Of a DNA stretch of 64,000 nucleotides, positions 15,471 to 64,000 are shown piece after piece. Position 1 is the first letter of the stretch; each line of letters starts with the position of its first letter. The stretch is taken from positions 12,650,263 through 12,714,262 of the forward strand of contig CM119264.1 in the NCBI GenBank assembly GCA_051294375.1, read 5' to 3'. The notes below the pieces were generated by a model that was not told where the DNA came from, searched no databases, and saw only the letters and a program-made list of their open reading frames with translations. This DNA comes from Paraspadella gotoi (lineage: Eukaryota; Animalia; Chaetognatha). The translations under genes were made by a program, and so were the position numbers.

Positions 15471-25372
<9,902 letters not shown>

Positions 25373-32858: not shown

Positions 32859-35800
32859 TTAATCAAACTCTTTGTGTTTTGCTGCCCAAGACCGTGGCCA
32901 AGGAAGCGGCCATCCGTATTGTCTCGGCACGTGACCCTTAACGTTACATTCGAAATAGTCGAAAAGACGAAACCACAAGACCCGGTTGATTTGGAAAGCC
33001 GGGTCGCCGCGGTTGGGAAGGGAGCGCTTGACGGAGAGGGAAGGGTTGGATGCGACGAGGGTGTGGTAGATCCAGAACAAACTGCGGAGGGGCGAAGAAT
33101 ATATTTTAACGCCACAAATACAAAAAAGTTTATCATCACCTCCATATTTTCTGCATACATAAACCAGTCTCGTTCTGTCAATCCGTTTGTTCTTCGTCAA
33201 ACTTTTAACTTTTCGTCTGAGGGCTATTAGTTTTCCAAATATGCATTTTGATTTGCAATCAATGTCTTTTTACGTTTTTTAGAATAATTTAAAAAAAAAA
33301 AGATTCAAAATACACTAAAGCTATAAAGGATCTTTTCTGAACTGATGAAGTCACTTACCGAGTGCATACGTAGTAAGCGAGCACGCAATCGAGAGTGTAA
33401 TGGTCGTGACCCAAAAGAATAAGCACGACGCCGACGAAACTTGTTACGGCGCAAGCCCAATGTAGGGGCCATAACCGTCGGGGCGAGTACTCTTGTATAA
33501 AGAGGTATGTCGTTACTAGCACACACGTATGTCCTGAAGGGAATAGGGATTAAAGCTGGAAAAAAAATGGCGGAATAAAGCATATATATATGTAAATAGC
33601 CAAATTTTACTGAAAAAGAATAATTAACGCGGAACACCCCCCCTTCTTATAAATTTTCATTTGGCAGATACCGGAAAAGACCCAGTCTCCACACGTATGA
33701 AGCTCGCCGGCAGTGGACATTCCGGCCGACATCATTATGCGCAAAGATCTCTGGATGATCTCGGGTAGTGTTCCTAAAAAAAGTAAAAAATAAAAAATTA
33801 GAGAAATGCTGGCGACTTCCACTATTCCTGCCTTTACCCTTTGTTTTAGGGGCGCATTCATAGGAATCGTAAGCTCGAGGCAGATTAGTGATGATCATCG
33901 TGACGCAACGATATAGATAGAGAAGACCCATGACAAAGAACTAAAACAGAAAATTAAGGACGAAAATGCATCAAATTTCAAGAAAACATTTGAAAATTCA
34001 TGAACAGTATAACATAATTTTTAAAAAAAGAAAAAACTGCTCTCATTATTTCAATTTTTTTCTACAAGAGCCTTTGCTCACCTGCCGACGGAGTAAGATC
34101 CATTTATGCCGGTGCAGCAAAACGGTGGTGTACCAAATGACTGTCAACGCCATGGCACAATATTCCGAGGCGGGAAACGCCCACTCTTGGACCTTGAAAT
34201 TCTCCAGGACCAAGTCAGGGAGGGGATGATTGGTTTTGTAGTCGGGGTATCGATCGTGAGCTAAAAGGGGTGAGCATTTAAAGGGTTGAATTTCTCTGAG
34301 TTAGGATTGAATTTAAATTTAAACCTAACCTAACGTTATGAAGAAACAGGTGATGGTGAGGCAGGCGGCGAACCAGATAAAGGCGATGAGAGTTTTTTTC
34401 TTTTCCGAAGGAAAGTTTTCTCGATCCTTTCGTCGAGCGAGGCGGCCGAATTCCGACCCACCTCCCTCGCCGCTGATGTAAATTTGAGTATGTTCGTTAC
34501 AGTTGTCGCCTGGGAAAGCGATTACAGCCATATTGAAAAAAAAAATTGGAGAATGTATCCGAGTTATCGACGTTGAGGTTCTTTCAGTTCCCTCATAGCA
34601 AAAAGAACTCAGAAAATACAGTCAATATTGGGAACATTGCTGAAATTTAATCCTCTTTAACTGGGTCTTAACAACTTAGGCAAATGAGAAAAATGAAAAT
34701 AGGATAAAATGAATGAATTTTTAAAAGGTCTGCGTTAGGTTTTTTATTATATCGGGTTTTTTTTGTGATCTAGATTTTAAGAAAACAGTTTAATTGGTCT
34801 GGTAAACGAGAAAGGTGTAGTTAACTGACCTGTATCATCATCTTCATCGTCGTCAATGTCTGGATTAACGGAAATCGATAGGTGCCCGTTTCTGCGCTCC
34901 GGCGATTCGTTCAACTGCTTTATCTGTGTCGTATAGCGTTCTGGAAGAGAACAAATAAGGGTTAAAGACCTATTTAAAAATTTTTGATATTTTGCAAACA
35001 TCTGCTTGGCGTTGGGAATTATTCACACATTTATCAGAAGAACAAGACAAAGTTTAATGAATAGCCCCATTCACCTTTGTCTTCTTCTGACTCTTCTACT
35101 CTCTGATATGTGTCGCCGTTAAGAGTTTTAGTATTCTGGCCGGGCATAGACATGGCGATAGCTCCGTAAACGGTCGAAAGTCCGGGAGGTGTTATTGGCA
35201 AACTGAAAAGAAAAAAAAAGGCTTTTTATCCACTAATTCGGAGTATAGTTCAGAATGGCAGAAAGACCATAAAAGAAGCAAGTCTCTGTGGCGCAACACC
35301 TTGAACTTGCCGGTTCTTCCGATAAGGTTTTAGTGTCGAAATTAATAGGGTTCATATGAAAATTTTCACCTAATGGGCGGAGTACTAGGATTACTGCTGA
35401 GAGGCGGCGAGTATAGCGGGTAGCAATAAGGCGCGGAGATCGCGGACTTGGTCGGAGAAGCTATTCGGGCTGGGATATAAATTTTACTGATAAACAATGA
35501 GGCTCACTCATTGAGTCGTCAGTGCCAGTGGTTCCCTTTTGACTTCATTCGAACCTTCATGTTTTGAAAGATCGGGCGATTCAGCGGTAGATGAGGCTCC
35601 GACAACGATGACTTCGGCGTCGACGGGCAAGGAGACGGTGTCACTAAGAGGTTCGTTTACGTTTTTGCTTTAAGGGGAACCAATGATAAAAATGATATCA
35701 TAAGCTTATGAGTATATCCAAGGAATTTGAATGGTGATTGTCATTAATTTTTTTTTATGCAGGAAAGTGATAAAAAAATTATAAGCTATCTGAATCTGGT

Positions 35801-36821
35801 CTTAAAATGTAAAATTTATAAAAAAATTCTTAGCCTTTTATATTTATAAATAATATTAAAAAATAATTATTAGGATACAGAGCCATATAAAATTTTTTTT
35901 ATCCATTGAAAGATATATTAAAAATGTAGAAATTTTTGTTTGAGCTTGTACTCACTCTAAATTTTTGACTCACCCCATTGAGTGCGGTTACCCCTAATTA
36001 TAGAAAAAAGAATCATATGGTCAAAACCAGCTTAAGTTAAAGGGTCAAACGTTATGCATTTTGCTTTTTACCCCCATGGTCACTTGGTCCCCTTAAATAA
36101 AGAGAAAAATAGAGAAAATAAAATGTTTTCATGATTTATGTTTACAATCTCTGCTGACCTGGAATCGTTATCTTGATCGTAGGTTGAACCGATCCCCTTC
36201 TTTTCGTCGCTGTCGAAAAGATGTCCCGGTCGGGCTCCGCCTTTCCGTTTTATTTTTGGAGTGCTGTGCCTAAAGTCTACAGCTTGATTGAGTAGGTTAC
36301 TTTCGTTGTTTTGGCGGCCAGCCGAGCCCCTCCTTGGACAGGGGGTTCCGCTGCTCCTATCTTCGCTATCCGAGACTCGCCCCGAACGGGCTGCCCCGAG
36401 CTTCGTCCAGTTTTCGACGTCGCCGGCCGATTTTTCCGATTTCGCTGGAAGATTCGTTTCATTCAAGACTGAAGGATGATTCGCATCGAGTCGTTGTCCC
36501 TCGGACATAACCGTCCGGAATGGGAGGGGGAGATCGAGCTAAAAGTATCGATGGTCGAATGTTTAGAGCGGAGACTCGTCGAGAAGAGGTTTCACGGTGC
36601 AACTAAGAATGGCAATTGCCACGCGGATTTACTGGACAGTAGCAATACAAACATGATTAAACAAGATTAGCGGCAAAAAATTAATTTTATCAAATAGTGA
36701 CAAAGCAGTTACTCTCTCACCGTACAAGCTCACCGTCTGTTTTAAACAAAAGAAACTTTAAAAAGATAAAAAAATATATATATTATAAATAACTAAACTA
36801 AAAAAAGGATACCGCCGACAT
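32859..36821 (-). CDS. Sphingomyelin synthase family protein, multi-exon; 5' exons uncertain
   Basis: AHDRYPD..PLPD, YLYRCVTMIITNLP, CGDWVFSG|HT, GHDHYTLD, R|LFWIYH, YFECNV, WPLPWP. Stop at 32859. The low-complexity N-terminal exons at 34.8-36.8 kb are tentative. Confidence 0.88.
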
Positions 36822-40650: not shown

Positions 40651-43600
40651 TAATAATAACATACTTTGAGGGAAACGTGTCGCATGCAAGTGGCGTTTTC
40701 CCAGTTGTCCAGCTCAAGTTTGGCATTGGGAATGGGGTCCCAGTTAAGCGGAGAGAAAAAGGAAATTGAGAACTTGTCAACTGTGGGCCAAACGTATCGG
40801 ACGTCTTTTTGTTGAGGTTCAAACTCCCTGTCCTCGCCAGTTTGGCGGACATACTCGGTTACGGGTTCCTTAAATATGCATGAACGAATTAGGAAATTTA
40901 ATAAAAACATTCTTTGATCATTTATTAACTCACTTCTGTGCTGAGGCCGACGGCATAAATCTTCGCAACAGGATGGTAAACGATAAAGTGTGGAGTGCAC
41001 CGCAGAGGAATCTTACGGATCGGCCAAGGATTGTCGTAGGAGAGGTGGGTCGGAAGGATGCAAACCCGAAGGTCCCCCTCACGGTTGAAGTAAAGAAAGC
41101 CAGTAGGACAGTTAACGTTGTCAAAAGGAGCAAAGCATGTTACGCCGCCGTCTTTGGAGGGTAAAAGGGATGCAAGAGGCGGGTGGGAGAGGAAAAAAAA
41201 ATAATGAAACGAAAAGAGCAAGAACATCTAATAAAAATTATTACCGTTTTTTTTTAAAGGCTAAAGGTAATACCTACTCACCTACATTCATAGGGTGCAG
41301 CCGAGGAATGCCTCTGATCGTAATGAAAAACCAGAATGGGAAAGTGCCGGCGATGAAAACCCCTTCATAGCCAGACACGTTAGAGAAAGGTCTTAGCATC
41401 CGCGTCCACGTCCTCGTCTCCGGATCTACTGGACGAAGCCCTCGACTCTTTTTCCGGTCGCGCAAATTGGAATCGAGGAGAACCTTGCGAAATCTGGGTT
41501 AAAAAAAAATAATAGTAACATAGAAGGAAGAAACAAGTATGGCAGAGAAAAAAAACCCTGTAAGTATATAAGTATAACAATATATGTATTATATATAATA
41601 TATATAATATATATAATATATATATAATATATGTTCAAGATAATTGCTTATTAGGGTGTAGTGACGAAAAGATTGAGCGAGGGAACAATGTTTTTTTGCT
41701 GCTTTTGTATATGTAATAAAAAATAAGTCCTTTTTCAAAAGAAATTTGCATAACAGTATCATTAAATGAATTTTTTTTATAGTAAATCTTATCTTATAAA
41801 ATCATAAAATTTTAAAATCATATTTTTTTTAATTTTAAGAACATTTTCGGATTCACCGGAAAAAAATGGAAAACTTTTGTAAAATATGTTACATGATATT
41901 TTTAGGTTAAAGCTGCGAAAAATGACCAAAAAGTTTCATCATATAATAGTGGAGAATTTGACCTTTTTTTTCATTTTTAACGCTGAAGACATTGAAATTT
42001 TCAATAACATATTTTATATTTTTGATCTAACTTTTTATGAAGAATCAGAATTTCTAATAAAAATTATTAAAAAATTATTTTGAAAACTTATGATTTTATA
42101 AGGATATTACTATAAATATATTATAATTAATGATACTGTTCCCAAACAATATAAGCAAAATATTTTTTGTACTCCTTAATCATATCTAAATCTAAATATC
42201 CTTGTTTGTTAACTCAAATAAAATTTATGTTCCCCAGTGCTCCACTCTATTGCTTATGGTCTAGCGTATACACTGCGGCACAAAAAGTAGCCTCTTGTTA
42301 GCTTTAAATACCCCCACTATTTTTTTTTAATTTGAAAAAATTATTTATGAAAAGTATTGCTTTTTTAAAAAGCTACCGATTGATGCAAAATAAATTAATT
42401 GGTTCAGGTAACAGATTACTGCAATACTTTGAAGTCAGAGTCTGAAAATAGAATTAAGAAAAAATAATTTTTGAAAATTAAGTTGATACTTCTTTTTTTA
42501 ACTGATGATAAAAGATTGCTTTTCTATCAAATTTCCTTACTTTTCCTGACTTTTGATGACTAAAAAATATTTTGTACTAATCAATTTCAACGTCCTATAA
42601 CTTTTGAACGTTTTGCTCAATTTTATTGAGACTTTGACCAATTGCTTCATCTTTCAATATGCTTTGTTTTATATTTTTATATCTTTATAAAATTGAACCA
42701 TCCAATATGGTTTTTTCCATTTGAAAAAATGGCTACTTTTTTTGCGCCGCAGTGTACAGTCATGCCACTTAATTTCAGACTTTAAAAATCACCATATATA
42801 CTTGGGTTTTTAAAAAAAATTTTAAAGTTAATTAAAGTTTATTGAAATATAATAAGTTTGGTATAAATTATATTAAAATCGGGCATTCCGTTTAGGATAA
42901 GTTATTTTTAAAAAGAAAAACGGCTCCTTACAAATATGTTTTCAGATAGAGGGATGAGTCTATTTCACTGGATTCCCCCATTACTCTTCCCCATTCTCGC
43001 TCGAGACACCTTTTCTTCTTCCTCTTCCGCCTCTTTTCCTCCCTTTCCCTTCCTCCTCATCGAGCGACGACAGAAGGAGCAAAGAGAGAGATTTTAGTTC
43101 TGTCTTGGGTTCTACTTCAGCTCGCGAGCTCCCTCTCAGAGAATATACTTTTTTTGCCTATTTTTTGGACTTTTCCTTTGACTTTACTCATAGAGAGATA
43201 GAGATGATGGACCTACCCATCAGTTAGGTTTTATATCATAAGAAATACCAAACCTATACCTTTAAAACCAATTATCATTAAACTCAATAGAGTTTACGGT
43301 ACGTAGCTGAGCTTATGTTCATCCTTAAACCTATTAAGTTTTTTTATAAATACTTCGGAATCATCATCTAATTTGTTCATTCATGAATTACTTCCATCAA
43401 TAATAAGTGATCCATTTAAAAGCTAAGTCCTTTAAATAAATTCAGTTCGAGCAAATTAAAAATGGCATATTAAAAATTGAATCACTGTAAATGAGTCTAA
43501 ACCTATGGCTTGAACATTTTTCATTCTAATAACAACCTAAAAGTTTTTGAAAATAAAAGACACATTCAAATATATTGTTTTTATTACATGAAATCAACAA

Positions 43601-46600
43601 CCAGATTTGATATTTCATTCTGTAATGTATTTGCCTACATAATCCCACAAATTTTACTAGAGCTGCGACTTCCTTTAACAGAATTAAGCTGATCAGCGCT
43701 TTTAGCTACATTTACTTGACCATCAGAATCTGAGAGTCCACCACGATCGAGTTGAATTGAATTCAAGATCGTCGCAGTCAATTTCCATTTAAATGTGAGG
43801 TCCTTGGTAACTCCGGGGCATAAGTCGGTTTCCCGTTTGTGTAATTCATCCCTCATGGAAATATCTAACTCTGTCAAAACCGTTTTGTTAGTGCCCGAGA
43901 TCAAAGCAGAACTATTGGTGATTTCAGTAACATTGGGTTGGCTGGCATGTTCGCCACACAGCCACAACATCTTTCCTGAAGGTAACAAACAACGTTTTAG
44001 AGAATAAAAATCTTTTTTCACTAGACTCATAACAAAAGATCGAAAATGTAAATAAGAACTCTTGAAGTAGTCGGATTTATCATCATGTGAATTAACTTCT
44101 GAATTAGACACTTTCAGCGTTTTCATGATTGAATACATATATAAAATAACTTTCTTGGCATTTTCACCTCCTAAGCAATCAATATCAACACATGCCGTTT
44201 CAAGGATGCTATAAATTTTGGCTAAATAACCTGCAGAATGCGTCAAAACTCGTTCTTTTTCTTCAAAGGACATGTTATCAACATTAATAGCTGTAACCAC
44301 ATGCCAACCATGTTCATTTTCACATAAAAATTTTACTTGCCATGTGTTTTCAATAAGTACCTTTACACTGAGCGTAATGTCAGAAATCTTTAAGTCAAGC
44401 AAGATGAGAAAAGGGAGAATTATGTCATCTGCAGAATATTTCACGATTTGTCGCAAAAAACGCCGTTGTACAAGCTCTTTAACTTCGAACAATGACTGAA
44501 TCTGATTATCACCAGTATCACCCAGGGAAAAACTTTGATTTTCCTCGGGATTTCGAATGTTACATAATTTTTCAGCCTCCATTAATAGATTTTTCAAGGA
44601 AAGTTCTGAACCTTGACGCATGTCTATCAAAGGAGCCCTTGCCTTGTTTAAAAGCAACATTCCTGCCTCCGTCTGCAACCAAGAATCAGAGGTTCCAACT
44701 AGCACTGCAATTATAGGTTTACCCAAATTAATAATGGAAAATCTGAGTTCCATCATACAATTACTGCTTTCTGCATATTCCTTTGAAACGCAAACCAGAA
44801 CCATTTGGGCATTCTTCATACCTATTGCAATATCTTCAAAGAGACCTTGTCTTCCTGCCTGCTCAATGTCAATCCAACATGAAAGCCCAGATTTTTCTAA
44901 AAATTTTTTTAATTCCCTTGGATCACTATTTTCATTAGCAAGCGCTGTTTCAATCAAAGGTGTACCCTTTTTAACTGCGTCATGACTATTGTACCAGCAG
45001 TAAGAAACAAATACCTTCAATTTAGAATTTTTCACAATTTGCGTAAGCCCCTCTAATTTGAGATTAAGCTGTTGTTTTAGCTCCAAAACTTTATCATCAA
45101 AAACATTAGGATTGGAAAAATTTACATAAATTTCTTGCCCGATGACAAGACCAAAGTCAGATTTTTTCCAGTTCATATTAGTATCAATGAGTACAACCAT
45201 CAATGGTTTTTTTAAAAATCTTCCAGCATATGAAAATAATTTTTGACAAAAATCATCTTTTTCATAATTGGTAGAAACCATCATCATAAACAACTTAGTA
45301 TGTTTGATAGATAATAAAACTTCTTCGTAATCAAGCTGACTTGTTATTTCTGAATACCAAACTTTGTAGCCCCATCCATTTAACAGTTTCTGCAATTTTG
45401 GAGGACAAAGATCATACTTTTCAGTTAAATCAAAATTGCTAAAAGATAAAAATATATCTGATTCAAGTTTACTTGTTAATTCCTTCATCTCATATACGGT
45501 TTGCTCAAACTGCAAATCAAAGTCAGAAGCACTTGAAGTTGGAAGAACAGCTTTTAACTCAAGCATAGAAATAGTATGAAAATGCTTCTGACACTGTAAA
45601 AATGGTGCCCTAAAATCTATCGCTTTTTGAACGAGTTTTTGGGAAAACATGGCAGGATCGTATGTAAATGTTTTCATACAATCAGGACAAGGCATTGAAA
45701 AATCATACACAACTCCAAGAAAAGATTCAGCAACCAAATTTTCAATTACTTCATGGAAAAGTAATATTAGGTTTTCTGGCCGAGGTCCCCGCACTTTTGC
45801 TTCTAACTGATTTTGTTTTTGTTCAATTAATGCTACCAACCGATTCTTTCTCAACAATGTTCCTCTTTTCCAAATTTTAGAATCATCAGCGAATTCACTT
45901 AGACGAACTTGTATCCGATTAAATAATCCTGGTGGTAAATATTCAAAATGATAAATAATTTTAGAACGTTTGTAATTGGGTTCAGAAACGTCAGGCCAGT
46001 CCAAGTCAACAGGGCAGGATTCCGGCAATAAACAAGGAACTATGCTCATTGATTCTTTAATAACCTCGTAGGTTAAATCAAACTCCTCAGTTAACTTTAA
46101 AAGCCAATTATGCATTGCTGGGTCATAATTTTTCCATATTATTGGTAAGTCTCTGTGATATAATCGACCTTGCTTAATGGGACTGTCTTTGACAGATACA
46201 ACACATGCCATGACATCTACAATCCATTGTGGATCTACAACAAGAATATTTTTCAATAACTCTGTATCAAAATACTGGACAGAACCTAATTCATGTAAAA
46301 ACGAAATCGCCTCTTTTATATCTTTTTCTTCAAAAATACCAACCTTGGCAGCTTCAATCATTACATTTTCCCAAGTAATTGTTTTAGTTATGGTCCTCTT
46401 TGATACAATGATCTTCTCTAAATCTAGGTAAACACTCGGGACTAACTCCCCCATGTATTTTTGGTGTAATGTAACTTTAATTAACTCATCTCTGAGTTGA
46501 GATATTCCCTGTCCAGTTATAGAACTAATGAAATAAAATCCGATGATCTGAGGAAATTTTTTTTTAAGTTTGTCGATAGGAATTTCAATGTTGGAAACTT

Positions 46601-49600
46601 TGTCACAATGACTACCAACAATAAAAATTGGAGTTTTTGGCGCATGACACGAAATTGAGCTTAACCAAAACTCCAATCCCGCGTGTTCATAACCTAATCT
46701 AGTTGTCCACAGCAAAAAATATACAGCTCGAGAGGTCAGAAAGAACTGATGAGTATTATAATAAACAGTCTGACCAGCAAAATCCCATGCACTGAAGCGT
46801 AATTCTCTGCCTTCTTCAGACATAACTTTCCATTCCACAATATTAATTCCATCTGTGATTTGTTCCTGGTCAGTTCCCATCGTTCGGTTGGTACTACTCA
46901 TTAGAGCACGCAAGAGACTAGTTTTTCCTAAACGAAAAAATTGTTTTTAAAGATCTATGAAAGTAGTATTCACTATTTATTTTATCGCCAAATTATGTCA
47001 AATAAATAATTATTATTATCTCGAACATGTTTTAGGCGCATTCAATTTCTTAATTTTTTAAAATGTTTATTCGCATGCGCTTATTGCAAAAAGTGGTTAA
47101 AATTCACTAAAAACATGTCTGAAGTTTGGTTTTATGAAAAAAGTATAAAATCTTTCAATTCCCATTAGAATTTGTTACAATATACTGAAGAGGTGGTAAA
47201 AATTGTTATGAGTTAGTGACAGAAACGTTCAACATAAGCAGTCCCTGAGCTTCGGATCAGGCTGTAACACCATGTTACAGGCGGATTAAGCGCCCCGTCA
47301 CTCTTAACTGCTAGGCAATTATCTGGCTAGAACCCCGGACCTTTGGGTTGGGAGGCGAATGACTTGCCTCCTGCATCAAAAGCCACTGATGAACGGTTGG
47401 TGGATTTTTTAGTATATTTTTTAGTATATTTTCACCAAACTTACCGCTTCCACCCAAACCAACTAGCATGAGTTTTGTCCTCTGACATTCCACATGACCA
47501 CCATTGAGTCGTCGCAAATAAGCTTTGATAGCCTCGAATCCTCGTTTAATGATTTCGATTGGTGGAGTTTTCAACGACGGGCAATGGGATACATTGAAAG
47601 TGTTTAGTAATGATAATCCTCCAAGTTCATATGTAATTGTGTCCAAAAAAGGATTGTGATGTAAGGACAGTTTTTCTAAACTTTCAAGGTTACGGATTTC
47701 GTTGGGAATTAAAGAAATAGATTGATATGAAAAATCCAATATTTTAAGCTTTTTCAAACAAAATATTTCGGGTGGAACCGAAGTGAATCGGGGAGTAGCG
47801 AAAAACAGTTCCGAGTTCAACAAAGCACCCTCTCGAGAAGAAATAATTCCATTCTTGTTAATATCACACAAATTAAAGAATGAATGGACGTTGGTGAGAT
47901 TAGCTAATGCGCAGTTACATTTAAGAAAATTTTCGTACTTTTCTTTTGTAAATGTGACATCGAATTCGCACCACTGTATTCCAGAAATATTTAGTTGTTC
48001 AAGTTTGAATAACTTTTTAAAAGACTCGGGTAAAATATTTAGCGGATTTGAAGACAAATCTAAACTTGTAAGATTAGATAAATTACCAATATGTTCAGGA
48101 AGAATATTGATGCAGCAATTAATTAGACTGATTTGTTTTAACGACTTACAATTGATGACACTTTCTGGAAGTACTCGTAAAGGAATATGTCTACATATAA
48201 GGCAATGCAAGACGGATGATAGACCAATATCAGCGGGAAGAAATTCAATTGCAGCTTCGGTTCCTCTATATTGGATTATCTGAAAAGATTCCAATTCAGA
48301 ATTACCTATTTTCGGTATAAATTTCAATTCAGAAAAAGGATTTAAAGCAAACTGATGAAGATTTGGAAATAACTCAAAAAAATCGTCAGGTAAATTCTGA
48401 CTTAAAGTACCAGTCAAAGTAATATCCACAATAGCTTCCGCATGCACTAAAAGGTCAGAAATTACTAATGATTCTGGAAAAATCGAGGCTGATGCCAGCA
48501 TGTGTGAATAGCAAGGTGTCGGACCAGAATCCTCTCTTTTAGAATAATAATAATTTTCATAGGCTTCTTTTTTTGCTAACAAAGAAAAGTGATGTGCATA
48601 AACATTAAGTATATTATAATTAACAAGCATTGTCTGTTTCTGTGTCAATTTATGAAATGAACTGCAAATAACTGGTTTGGACCTAAGCATTAGGGTCAAA
48701 ATTATTACCATTGAAACAAGATCTGGCGGCACATCATCAAATTTAATTTGTTTATTTATGTGTAACATTGTATGATTTTCCGATTCTTGATCATTTCTAA
48801 TATAAAAATATGTATATATACAGACAGGAAAGTAACTGTTTACATTAAATAGGTCATTTAATAAAACCGAGGAAGATTGAGGGAGCGGGAACATAATTTT
48901 ACAATCTTTATCTTTTAATCTATCAAGGAACCCAAACCATATATCTTTAGGTTTAACAGAAAAAACTGATTTTTTCCACATCCAATGGGAAAGTGGTAAT
49001 AATCGACATCCAACTTTTTCAAAGCATTCCAAAGGTAATTTAATCAGATTTGATGTAGTATTTTCAATTAAATCTGGGAATAACTTAACAGGAACTTGGG
49101 CTTTTTCGAAATATTTTGATTTTGATACAGATTCTTTAAATTGAAAAGGAATTTGAGGAAACTGAAATAAATGCCTCATATTCTTTTTACTACTATTAAG
49201 AAAAATGATGGAATATTGGGTATCTTTTAAGAAACCTTGCTTTGTTAAAGTACCATTCACACTTACATTTAACATACAAGGATAACTTATGGTTTCATAT
49301 TTTTCTTCGGTCAGCAATAATTTTCTAGAAGGATCTTTATCTTTAACGCACTCAAAGGAGTGAGAATAAACTTCTTCTTTTGATAAATCACTTAATTTAT
49401 TTAAGTCGAAATCAAAACCTGCTTTTAAAGTGTAAATTAACCAAATTTTTTCGGGAACATTTTGAAAATTAGAATCTATTTTTACCACTAAATTGCATAA
49501 GGGTTTGATAACCCCAAGAGGGGGTGAGACTGTTACCAGGGTTTTATCGGGAACTCGAAATTTGAAAAACATGTTTTGAGCAGATTTATTCAATAACTTT

Positions 49601-52600
49601 ATCTCACCCCACATATTATTTTTTTTACCTGATAGTAAAAGAACTTTTTCCGTTTGTGGTGTTACAAGTACAGGACCTGGTAATACTGCTGGTACTGGTT
49701 TGAAATACCTCAACGTTTCAGGACCATTCCAAGAAGGTAATGCAGATATGGAAACAACAATAGAAGGCCCAGGAGCAGCATAAGGAAAATACGCACATTT
49801 ACAATCTACTGACAGCGTTTCAATAAGTTTCCCATTCACAAAAAAATTAAGTTCCTCATTATAAAAATCTAAAGTACATTGAATCACGTCCTCCAGAGTT
49901 AAACTGATATCGTAATTGAATAAATCGATCAAAAATTGTTCTGATAACAATGAATTATCAATAGGCAATCCTGGTTTCAGCTTTTTAACAACCCCAATTA
50001 AAAGTTTGCCTTCAGAGTCTGTCACACTTTTTATGACTAATTTATAAGTATTACATTTACTAGATAATGGCCATCTTCCTTCAATGCAAGTATCAGATAT
50101 TAATAAATCATCAAGAAATTCTTGTTCGAATTGCCATCCTTTTAATTTTAACTTGCCGTTTTCTATGCCACCTGGGTGAAGGGCAAAAGAAATATCAACC
50201 CTTCCATTGTTCTCCTTAAAAGTATATTCATTGTTAAACTTGGTCAAAATTGACGGTTCACTTGCAACGTCAATAAAAGTTTGTAAAGACAATGAGGGAA
50301 TTTCTTCTACATCTGGAAAAATCATGTAGGAACTCGAGAAATCATTACTGACTAAAAATATTTTAATCATAGAATCACTAAAATTGTCCACATGGAGCGT
50401 TACGTTTCTAGTCGTTGAAAGACTGAATGGAATATCATAATACTGAGCAAAAAAATTATCAGTATTACTTAAATTATAAAAACTGCAAGGAAATCCACCA
50501 AAAAAATGTGATTTTAAATTCCAAAGCGTATATGCACAACTTTTGCAAATACCGCAATCGCGACAGGTGTACGCTGCTCGATTGCATTTGCATCTTTGAC
50601 TTTGGTGACTTAAAACTCGCGAGTATTGGCAATTCTGATCAAATGCACAATGTCCACCAAAAGTACAATTTGTAATAGATTTACTCAGTACCCAACGATG
50701 GTTTTTAACGATTCCATGTAAACCATCTGGAAGTACTATAAATTTTGATGAAAATGAAGAATCTAAATCCATAAGAAGTCCATCAATAATTTCTTTGCAT
50801 AATGAAAAAGCAGTCCAAAAATTCTGTTCTTGAGGCGTCAGCTCTGAAACATGCCCCGGACTATTAGAAGGATTGCTTTCATAAATTTTTGTATGAGCAA
50901 TTAAAAATACCTCGTCATTTTCAACTTTAAGTGCAACCTCTATTGAGCCACAATGAAAAATTCCAGCATTTTTGTCAAGATTTATGAAATTCATGATCTG
51001 GGAAAAAATAGTAACTATTAAAGAAAAAAAATTCAATGGCAACCTTCCATTTGAACTATATTTAATTTCTTTAAAAAACTTTTTATCATAATCAATAAAA
51101 GCAAAATTTTGTTCTTTTTCTCTCTTCCCTAAAAAATTTAACACTCTGTACCTTGGTTGCGCTAAATCAGTTCGCGGACATTCGACCTTTGACAAAATGC
51201 CACACAGAATCAGGACTTCATGAAAGTGATGATAATCTAGATTATTTTCGATGAAATCATGAAAAAGCATTGAACAAGCCTCTTTCTGATGAAAATATTC
51301 AACAAGATCGCAAAAGTCTGCAATTTTTCTCACGTAATGATGCGATGAACCCGATCTTAGTACGTAAATCAAATTGTGGGACTGTAAAATATTCAGAATA
51401 GCCAGGATAGAATTATTAGGATATTCAGCATTCAATAATTTACCAAAATCATCATCGGAAAAGATATTTCCGAGATGAGGTAAAATGTCAAGAGAAAATT
51501 TTAACACAGGCTTCCAAAATACTAATTTTTTTAAAGAACCTAATTTTACACAGAGGAAATCTAAAATGTACTTGGCATCTTCAACCGTCTTTAACGTCAT
51601 AGGCTTTGTGTGAATTAAATCTGAGATTAGCTGATAAACACGAAGGTCAAAGTCTGTTTGGCGGCACTTCATTGTTAATTCTTTTGAGTCTTCTTTAAAA
51701 TTGATAATGGTCAAAAAATATTCCTTAAGAGAATCGAAAATGCTCGAATTTTCTTCTGGACTATCAGAACCTGTCTCAACGAGCATCAAGCTCAAAGGAA
51801 TGTCTCGAGCCGTTGATGAAACATCACCTCCTAAAGTTGAGAGGATGACGGAATTCATGGAAGAATTCAAGGAAATGGCGGGATGCAATCCTCCGCCAAG
51901 ATAAAGAAATGAACCTTCCCAAATTCTCAAGCCGTTCAAATTGAGGAACAATTCTATTTCCGAGCCACAGAGCAACTTCTAGACATCGTTTTAATAATAT
52001 TTTATTTTTTATCCATAAATAGCTCAGAGTAAAGTTAAACTTATACTAAAACACAAAATTTAATTTTTGGTTCCCCATGGAACCGGGGTTCTTTATGGTT
52101 CTTCCCCACCAACAGAAGAGCATCTGCTCAGCAAAACGCGACATCTCCAGCCAAAAAAACGAAAAGAGGATCTCATCCTCTTCCCCCTCCCCTCCACTAC
52201 CACAGTGCGCAGCCACGAGACAATCACTCGTAACCAGCAAACCAGGAGGGGGAATCCCACTTGACCGGATGTCGTAGAAGGGGGGGGATGAGAAGTCGCA
52301 AAAACCAGTCCATGGACGAAACCGAGTCTGGAAAACTTGTCGGCCGGACGAGGCAATGGCCAAAAGAGCTGTCGGGCGATCAGTTGGCGTCCTTTAGCAT
52401 TCCTGAAGCCCTAGGGTGTGCCAANNNNNNNNNNTTGGCACACCCTACTGAAGCCCCACCCTTAAGCTTGGGAGGCGGGAAAGACTTGCGAGGCCTGTAG
52501 GGATGGCAAACAGGATTACACGGACTGCCACGCCCATGCTAGCAGAACAGGCGCAATTGTGTCGTGCCCTGGAATGGAAAAGCAAAGAATGCATCGCTTG

Positions 52601-55600
52601 AGTGATGTCTGGAACGGTCTCCAAAATTAAACGCTGTGGAAGGCGGAGAACTGGACAGAACTGTCTTGAGATCCAAAGGGGCAGCGTTGACTACCATGCG
52701 CTGAGACTCGGAGAGAGCCGTGCCAAAAATTGGCGCCAAACCTGACGAGACATCTTGGCAAGATCGAGGTAGCCTGCGTCGACTGCACCAGGCCCCTCTG
52801 AGCGAAGAGCCTCGACCATGAGGCGGAGAGCATCAGCGACAGACAGCATGAGCGGATGCTCCGGCGTCTCTCAGGATGCGCTTCAAAGCCATGAAAGGGC
52901 GCGTCATCTTGGAGTCCTTCCGAACGGCGTCTAAGCAGCAAAACTCTTGAGCGGGAGGACAAAACTCCACCAGAGAGAAAGCTTCCGACCAACGCTTGGT
53001 GCGCGCATTGGCGGAAAACACATCCCACAATGGCAGGACATTGTCCGGGTCGACTGCGCAAGTCTCTCCACTGGCTCAGCAGTCAGCACCCACTCCAAAG
53101 GCATGACACAAAGTTGTCAAACCCCTGACCCGACTCTTCTAAGGAGGAACCCTCCTCAGAGGCGTCATCTACTTGCGCTGATCGAGCTTGACAAGGAAGG
53201 CCCGACCCAGACACCCCCTCGGAGCATGAAGGCCAATCCGCCGCCAGAGGCCGCCAGTTGCTGGCGCTGTTGCTGGCGTCAAAACAAAAACCGACAAAGA
53301 AAGGTACAGAATGGCAAACAGAGGCGTCAAAAAAACAAGGAAAAAAGAGAAATCATTGAAAATAATAAGTCTAAAAAAAACCAAAAACAAAAACTCCACC
53401 CAAAATGAGAACAATCGAGCTTGAGCTTGAGCTCGAGCTCGAGTGGGTGGCTTTTAGTGGGGAAGAACCATGAAAAATCCCGGTTCTATGCGGAACCAAA
53501 AGTTCTATCATGTAGTTCTTCCCCACCAACAAGAGCCTATAATGAGACAGGCAAAGGCCCGACAAAACAAAAAGCCGAGTTAGGTGGGGCACAGGAGGAA
53601 AACCCCTCTGTAGACCAAATGAACGGCAAAAAAAGGCCTCAGCAGGGAGACTGAGCGCGGACAGAAGAAGTGATTCTGTCTCGTGGCTGCGCGCTGAGAT
53701 AGTGGAGGGAAGGGGGAAGAGGAGGAGATCTTTTCATTTTTTTGTCAGGAGATGTCGCGTTTTGCTGAGCAGATGCTTTTCTGTTGGTGGGGAAGAACTA
53801 CATGATAGAATTTTATATCTCGTAAATCATATTAGCGGTTAAAATGAGAGCCTATGAGAAAAGAGGAAAAAAGACGCAAGCAACAAGACAGATACATATT
53901 ACATATTTATACATAAGATAAAATAAGTTAAGATAAGTTTTCATCCGAAGCTTTCATTCTCAAGTTTACAGTAATTTCAATATAAAATAATCAGTAAGTT
54001 AACCAGAATGTTATTAAAACGATAACCACTGGTGATTTTCCTTTAGAATAAAATCCGAGTTCGATTTCATCTCCCGCGTTAAACAAATCAATTTTATTCT
54101 TAAAGTCCTTTAAACTCTTCGCGTTTTTTGCGCCGCCCATGACGTCAAAACCAAAAGATGCATCAGTCGTTCCGGGAATTAACTCGAGAGGATGAGATCT
54201 GGGAACAAAGCCGACGACTATGGCGTTCTCGACTTCCCTCTCCACAGAAATAATCTTAATTTTAAAGCTTTTTTCCGAATGATCATTAAGCGAAGACGAT
54301 GAAACAAAGACTCCAGGTTTTTTATCGGGATTTTTACATTGTTTTAAATAATATTCCTGCGAAATCATCGAAGTTTCTATGTATCTGTACATTGGTTCAG
54401 GGGCCCTAGAGTCGTCGGAGACCGCGGGGTCGTAGTAATTTAATATTCTTACTCGTTCACCCTGACTATTTAAGCTTATCATTGGCAGTAGGCCCAACTT
54501 TTGACTTCCGTCCGAGGGGCTCTTGAAATATTCGCCACGAATTCGCATTCGATGAATTTCCACGCTATTTAGCGTAAAAAAAACGTCTAAACCAGTCATG
54601 CTGACGTAATCTGGAGAAAGGTGGTTGACGTAACAACCTATAATGTCTCCTTGGCGAATTCGGGGCGGATTCACAACTGGGCTTTTTGCTTTGTTACAGG
54701 GAAAGGAAAACCCACTTATGTGAATTCTACCTTCTGATCCGTGATAACCGATGCACCCATGTTCCGTACCCACTGCCTTGTTTTCTGAGCATTCGAAGAA
54801 GCCCAAACCTACACAAATATTCCCTTTTTCTCCTAAATCCATTACTTCGACCTGGAAGCCACTAGCTTCTGAAGTTAAAATTCCGTTGGCTTTGAAGACG
54901 ACGGGTTCAACTGTTGTTCCCATATCACCGAATTCTCCATCTGGTAAAAGATACGAGTGCAAGGGAGAAAAGTATCCATGACTCAAAAATCTCCAATTCA
55001 GGAGAGGGTTCTCAATTACTTTGTCTCTTTCGTTCATTAGGCAAAAAATGTCCGTCAGAAATGTATATAGAAATAAGAGAAGTGGATTTAACTTCTCCAT
55101 CTTCGCAGTCAACTTTTCTATTTCGCTAAATGGGAGACGAGCTTTTTCAATCGTGGCCCTCGGAATACTAAAAATGTCGCAATATTTTAGTTTCGACAAA
55201 AACTCGTCAGCAATGTCATTGAACCTCGTCAATGCGGAGATTCCCAAGAGCTCCAGGCAAGCTCCGACCAGGCATCGGGACTCTACGCTCCATTTCGACG
55301 ATATCATCTTCGTCAAATTTAAGATCGGATTCTGAAAAAGCGGTGAAGTAAACATTTTGGCCGCGCTGTGTATAGTGTTAAACATCTTGAGACAAGCATT
55401 ATAAAATCCCTTTTCGCCTCTCGGTGCTGGAAAGTCCAAGAGCGTGGCTGCGTTAATTATGCTAGTAACATCCCTATCCGATTTCATGAATTGAAGGTAA
55501 GGAAACAATCCCGAATGATGATAGAAAAAAGCATGCTCCTCCACAACTTGGTCGCTTCGCTTCCAGACCAAAGTGAGGTTTTGACCCGGAAGTACGGACC

Positions 55601-58600
55601 CATCGAGATTGATCCGGTGGCCACTGGACACGATTCCCACGCTAATGAGGTCTCCTGCGCTGCAAGGAACGCCCGAGGCCTTGTTCGCGTCCGATTCTTT
55701 TAACGACGACGACCCAGAAGAGACTCCAATTTTTATTGACTTGCTCATTACTTTCTTGATCCGGACGCGAAAACTTGAATCAGAATTAGAAAGTGATTGC
55801 AGAAAATTGCAAAGCGGCAATTTGGCACGTTGTGAAGAACGATTCTGAGGCAAGAGCAATAAGTGACCATCTAAGGTCAAAACCAAGTTCCCACAGAGGG
55901 CCGAGTAAAATTGTTTTGACACATGTGCCAACGTCGATGAGGCTTCTCGGCCCTCTTTTTGGAGAATCTTCAGCCTGTCGACATACAATCTGGCGCATTT
56001 TTCAACATGCTGTGCAGCGCCACTTGCTCCGTCTGCAGTAAGATCCACGGCAATGATAACGTGATCAGGCGGCGAGGAGACGACGTCATGTAGTACGGAA
56101 TCTAGGGAGGCTTCCACGACATCTAGAGTAAAAGGCTGTAAGGCATCGTCGCCATTGCATTCTAACGTTGTTGATTCTGTGTCGTGTCGCTCCGATGTCA
56201 AGTCTTTGGACTGTAATGCCTTTGCGACGGAGTGACGGACGTTCGAAGAGGGAATAACTAAAACGTATCCACGACGGGAAATAAAAAATCCTTCAGTGTT
56301 TTCTTGTTTCTCAACATCCTCGCATTTCTTCTCATACCCCAGCAAAAAGTTTCCGCGTATCTGCTTTTCCCGGCTGACTGAAAAAGGTCGATAGGTCAAT
56401 CCAGTCAACGGCATACGCAACTCGCAAGTTGGCGGACAAACTAGAGACAAAGCGTCCCAGGCGTCGTTGGTCAGACGGAGACATCCGCAAAAGTCGATCG
56501 TCGAAAGTTTTGACGAGTCGCTTAGTTTTTCGCACAAGGCATAGACGCCTATGTCGGTGAGAAAACCAAGGCCGCGAAGAAGAAGGCGACGAAGATGCCT
56601 TTAGAGAAAGAAAAAGCAATAGAGATAGAAAACGAGAATTTGCAATTAACACTGACGAACTAACGCTAATATTTTCTTAAAGTTTATATCAAACAACCCA
56701 AAATATATCTTTAAAATAAAACAAAAGTAAAACCGACCTTAAATCTAATGCGTGTCTCGAAAGAGTCCTGATCGCCGCATCCACGACACGCGGACACCGC
56801 GAGCGAATTTCGACGACGATCTCCTCGCGAACGACGCATCTCGATGCTAAATTGTCCAGGAAGTCGCCGAAGGCGATGAGGGGAAAGGCGAAGGGATGGG
56901 CAGAGTCTGCGACGACCTTGTCGAGAGGAAAGGTCTCCGTTTCCAAAGAACCAGGAGAGGAAGTGCTTTGTAGCAAAAATCGAATGTTCCAGTCCTCGGG
57001 TGGAAGGTCGACACCGAAGGTAGCGTCTTCGCCTTCGTCTTCGACGTCTCTCTGCTTCCAAAAATCGCGTTTATTGATGTCCTCTAAATTTTCAGCTAAG
57101 GGAGGCGGCGACGGCCGCTCCGGTCCAGAAGGGAGTTTGAGAGAAAGCTTTGAAGTATTCATTTTATAAAGCACATTTTTTTAGCTGGTAGATTCCGAAT
57201 AACAAAGCCCATCATCCAGTTGCATACTGTAAAGCACGTTGAATCAATTCAACCCGCAGTTATTTAGTTTATCGTAGATTACTTTAATTAATTTGGCCAC
57301 TAGTTTGGTTAGCCTTTTGATCCCGCATTAATTAACACAAAGAGCGAAATAAATTTTCAGTGGGAATTACGGATTTTGAACTCTGTCGCCAAGGGAACGG
57401 AAGAAATCTTTGCGTGTCGAATTCCAAATACGTGTTGTGTAAAATAGGTTAAGGCAAAGCGAAAACCGATGTCGAAAAAAAACCCGCTATCCAAAAATCA
57501 TAATAAACGGTCTTGTCTCATCATGCCTCATCCTAGCTAGAGCAATTATATTGACTCAATGACAATTTAATGAATTATTCCTGAACCCTATTAATTACCT
57601 GATCTTTAGCCTTCCCCCGGAAGCCATGGAGTGTTGATGGAATGGGAAGCATTCGTAAACAACCAATTCGTCCTCCACTCGCGCCAGGAGATAGGGTTTC
57701 CGACCGCCGGCGCCCAATCCCGTCAAAGCTAACTCGGAGATTAGGGGAGTCTCCTTTTGAAGCATTTGTTGCTGGTATGCCGCCTTTTGGTTGGTGTGAT
57801 CCGGCACTTGAATTGAGATGGAAATTTTGAAAACGGTTGAATGTTATGTTGGAAATGTTGTAAAAAACTGAGTAGTATTGATTGCTACGCTTTTAACTTG
57901 AGGTAAGTAGATTTCTTTATTTGTGAATTACGCAAACCACCAGTTAGACATCTGATACCTAATTCATTCACTCACCAGGGGCAGAACCGTGTTGGTCGGC
58001 TAACACTCTCGGACGCAAGGAAAAGTTTTTTACGGCATAACAAAGTTTAAAATCGGGCATTGAATAGAATTCCAGTGCCCCATTTTCGCGACCTATCGCT
58101 GCCCACGCCGAGCGCCGGGCCGGTCGAGAATGCGTCGCCGGTTCCGGCGATAGGGGATTTCGAAAGTTGGAATCGAGGGGAGGACGCGAGCCGGAGGTAG
58201 AGGGTTTGGAGGAGGAAGAGGAGGATGTCCCATACAGAAGAGCCTCTTCGTCTTCATCGCCGTCGATATCGCTGTAATGAGTCGAGTTGAGTAGAGGGTC
58301 AAAGATAAGGAGAAAGGTAGATCTTGTGATATTGTCCAACTGTCCTTCCCTCCCTCGCTCCCAACTTACTCGGCCTTTGCCTCGCTTTTGTCGAGCGACA
58401 GCGCGGCTGCCAAATCCGCCCCAACGGCGGAGAGAGTGGAATGTTCGGGGAAAGGGTCGACGGTTGGCGACTCAGTGGTGAAGAGGCCCGAGGAGTCGAC
58501 GAAGGCACAAAGGGCGACCACCTTGGACGGCGGATGCTGCATCAACGGCGCGCGACGTACGGTGAGGTGAGGACCAGAGTCGTCTTCGTCAGAGTCCTCG

Positions 58601-61947: not shown

Positions 61948-62045
61948 GTTCGTTTCAAAGAATTTATGATTGCTATGACGATGGTGAATTTGAAATAGGG
62001 TGAAGACTGAAGAGACAGTTTAATAGTTATGAGTACTCAATATTA

Positions 62046-62168
62046 GCCGTCCCTAAGCTTCGGATCAGGCTGTACTCTGATGTTACAGGCGGGTTAAGCG
62101 ACCCGTTACTCTTAACTGAAACCTGGAACTTTGGGTTGGGAGGCATGCTTCCTGCTCCAATGGCCGCT
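62046..62168 (-). mobile_element. SINE family 2, second copy, with a twister-like fold (62046-62118); predicted catalytic G replaced by A
   Basis: Minus strand: CAGUUAAGAGU-AACGG-GUCGCU-UAA-CCC-GC-CUGUAAC..GUACAG-CCUGA UCCGAAGC UUAGG. Confidence 0.65.
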
Positions 62169-62934: not shown

Positions 62935-64000
62935 TGTTTTATTCGTTTACAACAATTAGTTGAAACAGTACATTCAAAAGGGCATACAGCATTACAGATA
63001 AACGCATAAATTGTACAGTTTACAATTCAACAAAATATAAATATTTAAATTAACAGAACGAAGAAAAAAGAAAAAAAAAATCAACAATAAGCTGACAAGA
63101 TTTTTAGAATATTGTTTCTAGAGGAAAAAAGCTTGGATTCAAAGTTTTTTGATCTACAAGCAAAAATTTTATAGATATCATTATATCCAAATGAGGACCT
63201 TAATGATCGTACACTCTCCCATCTATTCCAACCAAAAATTTTTCTAATGCCATCATTTATTGCTACATTTACTTTGGTCATATCTTTTGCAAGATACTCT
63301 TTCACTTCACTTCCGTACGTAAGTATTGTGACACAATTGGTGTAGTACAAACGCATTAAAACTTCTTCTGAGGGTTTATATAAGGAATTAAGGAGACAAT
63401 TGCTAGAGCGGTAGAAAGAGGATAACTCAGATAATGGGTCAAAGACAAATGCTTTTTCATTACTAAGATTAAAACCGAGATATTTCCATCGGTCTACGAA
63501 TTCAATGATATTTCCTTTAATTAGTAAAGAATCTTTGTTGATACAATACTTTTGTTTGCCAAAATACATTGTTTTTGTTTTCTTAAAATTAAAACTAAAA
63601 GCATTGCTACTACTATAGTTAGCACATATATCAATCATTTTTTTCATACCAGAAATTGTTGGAGATAACAAAGCTATATCGTCAGCGTAAAAAATGCTAG
63701 CAGCAAATAAATGATCTATATGGCAACCAAAACCAGATTTTCGTAATTGAATTATCAAGTCATCAATATAAACTGCCCACAGATAGGGACTTAAAATACC
63801 ACCCTGACGAACCCCAGAAACAATAGAGAAATAATCTGAAAAGATGTCAGACCATCTACACCTACTGCGGAGATTAAGGTACCAGTAAGTAATAAGTCGT
63901 AAAAAACATAAGGGAAATTTTCTCTTTATGAGTTTTAGAAATAAACCATAATGGTTAACCTTGTCAAATCCTTTTGAGCAATCCATGAATGTAGCAAACA
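62935..64000 (-). mobile_element. Non-LTR retrotransposon (RTEX/CR1-group-like) 3' part: RT ORF 63081->63986 plus 3' UTR
   Basis: DCSKGFDKVNH, SGVRQGGILSP, YADDIALL, FNFKKTK, KYLG in an uninterrupted frame. AATAAA near 62940. Confidence 0.9.

Follow-up and report, generated by a model that had tools for sequence, protein, structure and literature searches.

Position of a Roco gene within CPSF1

The sequence analysed here (the window) is a 64,000-nucleotide (nt) stretch of Paraspadella gotoi DNA; it is eukaryotic, contains a single gap of 10 Ns at 52425-52434, and carries a large Roco gene inside the gene for CPSF1. Four open frames are found on the minus strand between 57180 and 43638. Splicing of the corresponding exons (57162-56738, 56598-54027, 51978-47445 and 46927-43635) yields a protein of 3,607 amino acids (aa) with one terminal stop, exactly reproducing the open reading frame of about that length proposed in an initial annotation of this DNA. 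In the whole protein, Pfam detected SPRY, leucine-rich repeats (LRRs), Roc, COR-A, COR-B and two TIR_2 stretches above threshold, and found neither a kinase nor an MBT domain; a kinase function was therefore rejected.

Exon 1 (56738-57162) begins with the ATG at 57162 and encodes aa 1-142, a start of low similarity followed by the onset of a Cys-containing LRR region. Intron 1 (56599-56737; 139 nt, GT-AG, phase 2) has a strong acceptor. Exon 2 (54027-56598; aa 142-999) encodes Cys-type LRRs, the first half of a Roc-like domain lacking a P-loop, a weak SPRY-like segment, a helical region, a SPRY (54878-54432) and the first two thirds of another SPRY. Intron 2 (51979-54026) is about 2,048 nt long and has weak splice sites, the donor possibly lying 3 nt upstream. 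Exon 3 (47445-51978; aa 1000-2511) encodes the end of that SPRY, the second half of the pseudo-Roc with a degenerate COR (about 51800-50700), a Cys/His cluster (50700-50509), a weak SPRY, an MSP/ASH-like Ig domain (49626-49462), an unassigned region, further LRRs (48396-47506) and the beginning of the true Roc; an EF-hand loop consensus is located within these LRRs (47830-47865; aa 2371-2382). Intron 3 (46928-47444; 517 nt, GT-AG, phase 1) interrupts the GxxxxGK[T/S] P-loop of the true Roc and contains a dispersed repeat. Exon 4 (43635-46927; aa 2511-3607) encodes the remainder of the Roc (to 46464), COR-A (46439-46026), COR-B (45962-45555), a first TIR without the catalytic Glu (TIR1, 45470-45045), a second TIR with it (TIR2, 45023-44565), a folded Cys/His domain (44513-43824), a disordered linker and a CaaX ending (43649-43638). 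All these features are on the minus strand.

An exon matching human CPSF1 residues 829-891 (E 1.5e-7) lies upstream of the Roco gene and one matching residues 923-968 (E 3.2e-7) lies downstream. They flank a minus-strand host intron of 16,105 nt (41494-57598; GT-AG, phase 2) that falls between the codons matching human CPSF1 residues 891 and 892. In the genomic sequence the two flanking exons join in frame without stops, and the remaining CPSF1 exons are arranged collinearly to either side, between about 61000 and 38341. As judged from these matches, the whole Roco gene is nested in one CPSF1 intron on the same strand, a position that the initial annotation had overlooked, as it had the EF-hand loop. 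Misassembly was considered as the cause of the nesting and rejected, since CPSF1 and the Roco gene independently span the gap. The CPSF1 intron contains 12 sense-strand AATAAA hexamers, one of which, at 43585, precedes the end of an RNA contig; the probable poly(A) site of the Roco gene (43549-43585, minus strand) combines this hexamer (43585-43580) with the 3′ end of the spliced contig at 43549.

Statements from published work refer throughout to those parts of the papers that were accessible. In Drosophila, 71% of nested genes lie on the opposite strand of their hosts, those on the same strand mostly have a single exon, and the hosts of intron-bearing same-strand nested genes are less often essential (PMC3814207). 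In mammals the strand bias is slight, and nested genes can trigger premature polyadenylation of the host (PMC11694760). The Drosophila data suggest that selection acts against the present kind of arrangement, in which the sense strand of an essential poly(A)-factor gene houses a spliced gene of 13.6 kb that has a poly(A) signal of its own (PMC3814207). None of the titles listed in our literature search concerned a gene located within CPSF1. PCF11 is reportedly subject to feedback through an intronic poly(A) site. CstF-77 is likewise described as regulating itself through such a site (PMC3708835). Like these two, CPSF1 is a 3′-end-processing gene with a large intron holding a usable sense-strand poly(A) site; unlike theirs, the site in the CPSF1 intron belongs to a complete, spliced, nested protein gene, and its use by CPSF1 is only putative. 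The nesting makes feedback on CPSF1 through the intronic site directly testable.

The CPSF1 donor (57598) is separated from the Roco ATG by 436 nt on the same strand, an arrangement that would suit a Roco gene without a promoter of its own, expressed mainly as an alternative CPSF1 3′ end. This explanation, which we consider very improbable, includes an in-frame CPSF1-Roco fusion in which the donor at 57598 is spliced to the acceptor of exon 2 (56599). Such a fusion is possible on paper because both splice sites are phase 2 and no stop occurs over 300 codons of the joined frame. However, phases agree by chance in one case out of three, exon 1 shows both homology to N-terminal sequences of relatives and RNA contig cover, and the fusion would presumably interrupt CPSF1 in the middle of its propeller region, which also counts against it.

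The Roco gene has only three introns per 10.8 kb of coding sequence, whereas its host CPSF1 has many short exons. The GC content at third codon positions (GC3) declines from 0.56 to 0.23 along the gene, with values of 0.46 for exon 2 and 0.27 for exon 3. The few introns and the falling GC3 are compatible with an old retrocopy that later regained introns.

Splice junctions and the probable unity of the gene

The junctions were assessed with X1, a public sequencing run with 86% of the sampled words, which was taken as RNA by guess with only its spliced contig as backing; the X1 data considered are the three joints and 7 contigs listed, from a set with 454 further pieces. A 4,025-nt contig covers 43549-46926 and 47444-48090, omitting intron 3 exactly and thereby bridging junction 3, and its 3′ end lies 31 nt past the AATAAA. 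Exon 2 is covered by contigs at 54073-55105 and 55352-56002, exon 3 is also covered, and exon 1 is represented through a contig variant at 56874. RNA support, which the initial annotation had asked for at all three junctions, was thus obtained for junction 3, and junctions 1 and 2 were not among the listed joints. Junction 1, absent from these three, is canonical and lies inside a profile match at aa 126-348 (E 2e-17; profile of seven relatives only).

At junction 2, 17 donor/acceptor pairs keep the frame, so the exact length of the protein is not fixed; the plausible pairs give 3,605-3,609 aa. The main evidence that exons 2 and 3 encode one protein is the SPRY domain split by intron 2 (51835-54311, minus strand; aa 905-1047), which is matched without a break across the join at 999/1000 (E 4e-9 and 4.5e-14) by profiles built from relatives only. 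In addition, orthologues have the exon-2-type and exon-3-type modules in a single chain and in identical order. Between X1 and the window there are 11 exonic differences, of which 8 are synonymous compared with 27% expected (P 0.002), and synonymous changes make up 7 of the 8 variants in exon 2. Considering these alignments and variants, the Roco locus is very probably one gene. Several observations tell against this conclusion: junction 2 is bridged by no X1 contig among the joints listed, its donors are atypical and its acceptor is pyrimidine-poor (8/17), intron 2 contains the assembly gap, and 3 of the 11 exonic variants are non-synonymous, all 11 coming from single contigs with a depth of 2.5-5.8.

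Intron 2 has a 17-nt inverted repeat (16/17 matching; arms 51985-52001 and 54007-54023), equalled in 0 of 1,500 shuffles, whose arms lie 3-6 nt inside the splice sites; it also has inverted repeats of 130 nt (52098-52228 and 53669-53798). Half of each 17-nt arm, if joined, would form a 16-nt palindrome centred on TTAA. No target-site duplication flanking the element was found by eye. The intron may be transposon-derived, or its paired ends may aid the splicing of weak sites.

The inverted repeats just inside the intron ends and the larger ones between them, together with a high multi-copy RNA depth within the intron, would also fit a gene broken or split at junction 2, in which a mobile element has inserted into the exon for SPRY and is removed imperfectly by splicing. 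The products of this allele would then be a truncated N-terminal protein and/or a separate C-terminal LRR-Roc-COR-TIR-TIR transcript. The atypical sites, the gap, the unbridged junction and the difference in GC3 between exons 2 and 3 point the same way. Nevertheless, the two halves are stop-free over 857 and 1,511 codons, the exon 2 variants are nearly all synonymous, an in-frame GT-AG pair gives back a SPRY loop of normal length, GC3 declines gradually with no step, and the CPSF1 halves that flank the gap independently back the scaffold order. Moreover, the frame is not regained when the element is deleted at the central TTAA, and the site is therefore not explained by a simple recent insertion. 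A broken gene is therefore regarded as quite unlikely.

Domain composition of the predicted protein

In the C-terminal half, Pfam identified Roc (E 1e-17), COR-A (E 2e-28) and COR-B (E 5e-23), with the COR directly after the Roc, and an intact GxxxxGK[T/S] P-loop at aa 2506 is completed by the RNA-confirmed splicing of intron 3. A structural model of exon 4 (51 sequences) reached a predicted local distance difference test score (pLDDT) of 82.6. It matched Roco structures (Foldseek E ~1e-19; Z 26.0, root-mean-square deviation (rmsd) 3.2, 291 residues) and displayed two separate TIR folds, with Z 16.3 for residues 493-629 and Z 15.9 for residues 641-797. The intact Roc-COR and the two TIRs of the initial annotation are thus upheld by domain search and model alike.

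The two TIRs are unequal at the alphaC position. In TIR2, where the position was set by alignment and by the secondary structure of the model, all 46 ungapped rows of an alignment with 51 rows have Glu there, and the residues at the pocket positions are invariant as well; by alignment, the putative catalytic glutamate of the P. gotoi protein is aa 3237 (codon 44748-44750, minus strand). The corresponding residue of TIR1 is Leu, with Glu in 3 of 49 rows, Thecamonas being among the three. Clustered TIRs can be NADases, as the initial annotation noted; of the two here, TIR2 alone keeps the putative catalytic Glu. Identity to six relatives amounts to 58-66% in Roc, 47-54% in COR, 41-49% in TIR2 and 24-30% in TIR1. 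Compared with the SARM1 TIR, TIR2 gave Z 15.2 (rmsd 2.2, 125 residues), which reflects a shared fold and is tied with the values for non-enzymatic TIRs. In the deep-branching relatives P0029, P0037 (Thecamonas) and P0041, Glu is kept in both TIRs, which suggests, from the alignment, that TIR1 lost catalysis within the animal lineage.

The tail behind the TIRs is a folded domain, confidently modelled with exon 4, in which two Cys and two His are kept in 33-38 of 41 sequences. Its profile also hits 25 of 113 proteins that had no part in building it, all 25 being more distant Roco proteins, and the tail can therefore be regarded as a general Roco domain. The predicted CaaX ending stands: a Cys is placed four residues before the C-terminus, after the disordered linker, and a CaaX-type Cys occurs in 19 of 30 relatives possessing the tail, and in 21 of the first 58 proteins (one of them a fragment) versus 4 of the next 93. 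Because this ending is conserved across phyla, the predicted membrane anchoring is better supported than before. With regard to transmembrane segments, the highest hydropathy over 19 residues is 1.86 on a simple scale, similar to the 1.82 of a segment inside the soluble COR.

The N-terminal half was compared with relatives by profile. Of 19 relatives, 16 are matched in their N-terminal halves by a profile of the true Roc-COR, 12 of them with domain E < 0.001. A profile of that N-terminal region from nine relatives matches aa 1233-1489 of the P. gotoi protein at E 4e-25 (1.3 bits for the best of 200 shuffles) and its true Roc-COR at E 1e-6, and when this profile was aligned with the Roc-COR profile by hhalign, a probability of 98% was obtained (E 2e-13, 287 columns). 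From these profile matches, the N-terminal half is taken to contain a second, degenerate COR, which bears out the COR-like region and Cys cluster of the initial annotation. The cluster itself has nine Cys and one His that are kept in most aligned relatives and is therefore likely to bind zinc. Of the Roc-like segment that was said to lack a P-loop, the second part of the claim stands, as no P-loop consensus was found at this position of the P. gotoi protein, where one placozoan member of the family has a P-loop-NTPase assignment; the homology of its first half to Roc is in register but weak (hhalign 6%, P 0.006).

In P. gotoi and in the relatives, SPRY domains sit between the two halves of the pseudo-Roc in variable number. 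Two in the P. gotoi protein are firm, one passing Pfam and the other spanning junction 2. Two more of the SPRY-like repeats proposed earlier (aa 409-519 and 1691-1726; 2.1 and 5.3 bits) do not exceed the best of 200 shuffles (5.4 bits); the segment at aa 1691-1726 is collinear with a clear SPRY in orthologues. Pfam confirmed LRRs but did not detect the Cys-type ones, and the MSP/VAP-like domain proved weak: the Ig-like segment scored 20.6 bits for Motile_Sperm (cut-off 25.9) and 28.1 bits for Cep192_D6 (cut-off 35), both sub-threshold. A VAP-like FFAT receptor was rejected; the segment is poorly conserved among orthologues, which leaves FFAT binding unsupported. Of 24 proteins tested, 13, among them that of P. 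gotoi, have the EF-hand loop consensus before the P-loop, and in the abalone orthologue a sub-threshold Pfam EF-hand match was obtained.

For the middle of the protein, a fold search with the model of aa 1311-2510 returned only LRR proteins. A complex prediction that paired the pseudo-Roc-COR with the true Roc-COR gave a score of 0.00, obtained with no alignments used and with an uncertain partner fold. Word-based searches with exon 2 and exon 3 (aa 250-900) gave no matches, and a protein atlas search gave no usable match for exon 2 or the tail.

Probable family membership and proposed mechanism

A search with exon 4 returned about 50 close relatives, and the 30 that were looked up include proteins of a brachiopod, amphioxus, gastropods, bivalves, a nemertean, an annelid, a flatworm, a nematode, Thecamonas and a cryptophyte. 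In a quick Roc-COR tree (41 rows, P0158 left out), the P. gotoi protein fell in an 11-row clade with Tubulanus, Lingula, Macrostomum and mollusc proteins (Shimodaira-Hasegawa-like approximate likelihood ratio test 98). Most full-length members of this clade have SPRY, by Pfam or by profile. MBT occurs in an amphioxus protein and in a paralogous clade, and in none of the SPRY-type orthologues. The latter are Haliotis rufescens LOC124124359, Ylistrum XP_060065175, Tubulanus XP_074647641, Sinanodonta KAL3880394/5, Lingula XP_023932352, Macrostomum PAA58707 and Physella XP_059158979, all uncharacterised. The initial annotation had proposed to look for the same architecture in other invertebrates; orthologues were thus found in a flatworm, a nemertean and a brachiopod as well as in molluscs. 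The full-length SPRY-type orthologues share with the P. gotoi protein the module order, the Cys cluster, SPRY, the EF-hand loop, a TIR1 without Glu and a TIR2 with Glu, and in most of them the CaaX ending; they differ from it in the number of SPRY domains inside the pseudo-Roc, and its middle region is very diverged.

Some records of relatives call for comment. P0156 (Sinanodonta KAL3880395) is annotated as a fusion to BTB-BACK-Kelch, probably an annotation read-through; its isoform P0006 ends in CaaX. Relatives carry automatic 'serine/threonine kinase' labels; the P. gotoi protein has no kinase domain. P0062, P0076 and P0110 have two Roc units each, and in P0062 and P0076 these are two full Roc-COR units with both P-loops intact; tandem Roc-COR therefore also arose outside the family of the P. 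gotoi protein.

Kamm et al. 2019 (PMC6321704) described the placozoan proteins TrispH2_004509 and TrispH2_001486 (3,019 and 2,928 aa) as ecTIR-DC 14 II, a name given there as following Gerdol et al. 2017. The drawings in that paper show MBT, EF-hand, LRR, Roc, COR, TIR and TIR, and one member has an N-terminal LRR plus a P-loop NTPase. The P. gotoi protein shows the ecTIR-DC 14 layout (LRR, EF-hand, LRR, Roc, COR, TIR, TIR, ~3,000 aa), and a new architecture was accordingly rejected: the layout that the initial annotation did not recognise as characterised was already in print (PMC6321704). The placozoan proteins are described there as having no transmembrane segment and an unknown function. 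Unlike the P. gotoi protein, which has SPRY and an MSP-like segment in that place, they have MBT (plus SH3/chromo), and the figure as accessible shows no second COR, no difference between TIR1 and TIR2 and no CaaX, the comparison being one of layout and not of sequence. Because MBT before the LRRs, present in both drawn placozoan members, is absent, the P. gotoi gene was not filed under subtype II; on its predicted domains it probably belongs to ecTIR-DC 14, in a subfamily that has SPRY domains. It is one further member of a named family at an unusual address, and what is added here is the dead/live pairing of GTPase units and of TIRs, the conserved CaaX and the CPSF1 address.

Other known systems share parts of this layout. 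The Aplysia ROCO-TIR proteins LOC101848126 (with MBT) and LOC101845043 (with EF-hand), filed as putative Toll-like receptors (TLRs) by domain content, have LRR-Roc-COR-TIR like the P. gotoi protein, form one clade, and were proposed as a possible GTPase-linked TLR signalling route (PMC9334734). MFHAS1/MASL1, LRRK1/2 and prokaryotic Roco proteins have the same LRR-Roc-COR core and fold (Foldseek E ~1e-19; Z 20-26); unlike them, the P. gotoi protein has no kinase, a TIR pair as output, an extra putative degenerate Roc-COR and CaaX. With SARM1 and other catalytic animal TIRs, TIR2 shares the alphaC glutamate (10.64898/2026.04.20.719644). Unlike SARM1, the protein has no SAM or ARM domains, and oligomerisation would have to come from Roc-COR. 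The accessible parts of PMC8195603 and PMC5549309 held nothing on this family.

Given that Roco proteins are described as dimerising GTPases (PMC4104024) and that Glu-bearing non-TLR animal TIRs make cyclic ADP-ribose (cADPR) in E. coli in a Glu-dependent manner (Hurieva et al., 10.64898/2026.04.20.719644), we favour, with moderate confidence, a four-exon, kinase-less Roco of the ecTIR-DC 14 type, nested in CPSF1 and anchored by CaaX, whose Roc-COR would gate NAD+ cleavage by TIR2. A legend to a figure of active proteins in the latter paper names Roc and COR among the domains. In the proposed mechanism, the CaaX tail would be prenylated and the protein membrane-bound. The variable N-terminal LRR/pseudo-Roc-COR/SPRY half could serve as an input or autoinhibitory module, with Ca2+ as a further input through the EF-hand loop. 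Such input would alter the nucleotide and dimer state of Roc-COR, and COR dimerisation would bring the TIR2 domains together. TIR2 would then cleave NAD+, the output being cADPR production or NAD+ depletion, and TIR1 may act as a non-catalytic spacer or brake. Our most likely guess for the trigger is innate-immune or stress signalling.

An intact gene may instead encode a non-immune or non-enzymatic scaffold, a membrane-anchored GTPase hub with TIRs that are protein-binding adaptors; cilia, neurons, sperm or membrane traffic would be examples of its setting. We regard this as possible but doubtful. The family has a low copy number, with two or three paralogues per named genome, is strongly conserved from placozoans to amphioxus, and a TIR-TIR Roco is present in the apusomonad Thecamonas. 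The alignment of TIR2 to adaptor TIRs is just as good (Z 15.9 and 15.7). The best score of the Ig-like domain, although sub-threshold, is for Cep192_D6, a type found in centrosome and cilium proteins. The inactivity of certain Glu-bearing TIRs (10.64898/2026.04.20.719644) also agrees with a scaffold. Nevertheless, invariance of the TIR2 Glu and pocket residues while TIR1 lost its Glu is what would be expected under selection on catalysis, and LRR-Roc-COR proteins have repeatedly been tied to defence (PMC11378527, PMC4104024).

A gated TIR2 enzyme with a degenerate N-terminal Roc-COR must also be weighed against further adverse observations. The true Roc-COR profile gave no passing domain in the N-terminal half of the P. 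gotoi protein itself, the COR call there being transitive through relatives. Over aa ~1500-2190, a profile built from five orthologues gives hardly any signal, and the model of aa 1311-2510 is of low confidence outside the LRRs, the part at aa ~1500-2190 having pLDDT < 50 and being unusable. TLR2, IL-1R9 and IL-1R10 have the glutamate and yet are inactive (10.64898/2026.04.20.719644). The family is not expanded like immune receptors. No functional study of it (activity, localisation, infection) was found in a literature search with subscription journals mostly outside its coverage, nor did that search find anything joining Roco, TIR and NADase, or Roco, pseudo-GTPase and COR.

A bolder joint proposal can be formulated, which we regard as unlikely as a whole. 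First, the dead Roc-COR and the dead TIR would restrain the live pair, making the protein a prenylated, GTP/calcium-gated cADPR synthase; second, the Roco poly(A) site would act as an intronic stop for CPSF1 in a negative feedback on 3′-end processing, possibly with an in-frame CPSF1-Roco fusion. If true, the first part would describe an ancient, self-contained invertebrate switch, and by the second a signalling gene would, in this lineage, feed back on CPSF1, which is the scaffold of the very complex by which poly(A) sites are read. Catalytic TIRs were recently shown to be widespread in animals (10.64898/2026.04.20.719644). For the study of their activation, this family, conserved over many invertebrate phyla, provides a complete candidate protein that combines a predicted GTPase switch of its own with a naturally occurring dead/live TIR pair.

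Further features of the window were recorded outside the Roco exons. The dispersed repeat in intron 3 (47227-47356) has a second copy at 62037-62144 (85% identical), with a summed X1 contig depth near 49,000; it matched neither Rfam nor a tRNA (ARAGORN) and is possibly a short interspersed nuclear element or another abundant small-RNA-like element. Downstream of the Roco gene, the CPSF1 intron contains an element of ~490 nt (42269-42756) resembling a miniature inverted-repeat transposable element, with terminal inverted repeats of ~30 nt that start and end with TA, and, in its AT-rich sequence, a short purine-skewed island of high GC content (42950-43227) in which small open frames occur on either strand. 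Long open frames at 22773-24341 (+), 15819-16847 (+) and 3-953 (-), of 523, 343 and 317 aa, had no Pfam match. A fragment of a reverse-transcriptase open reading frame is located at 63084-63998 on the minus strand (Pfam RVT_1, E 2e-20). Downstream of CPSF1, exons at about 32860-36540 on the minus strand presumably belong to a gene resembling sphingomyelin synthase.

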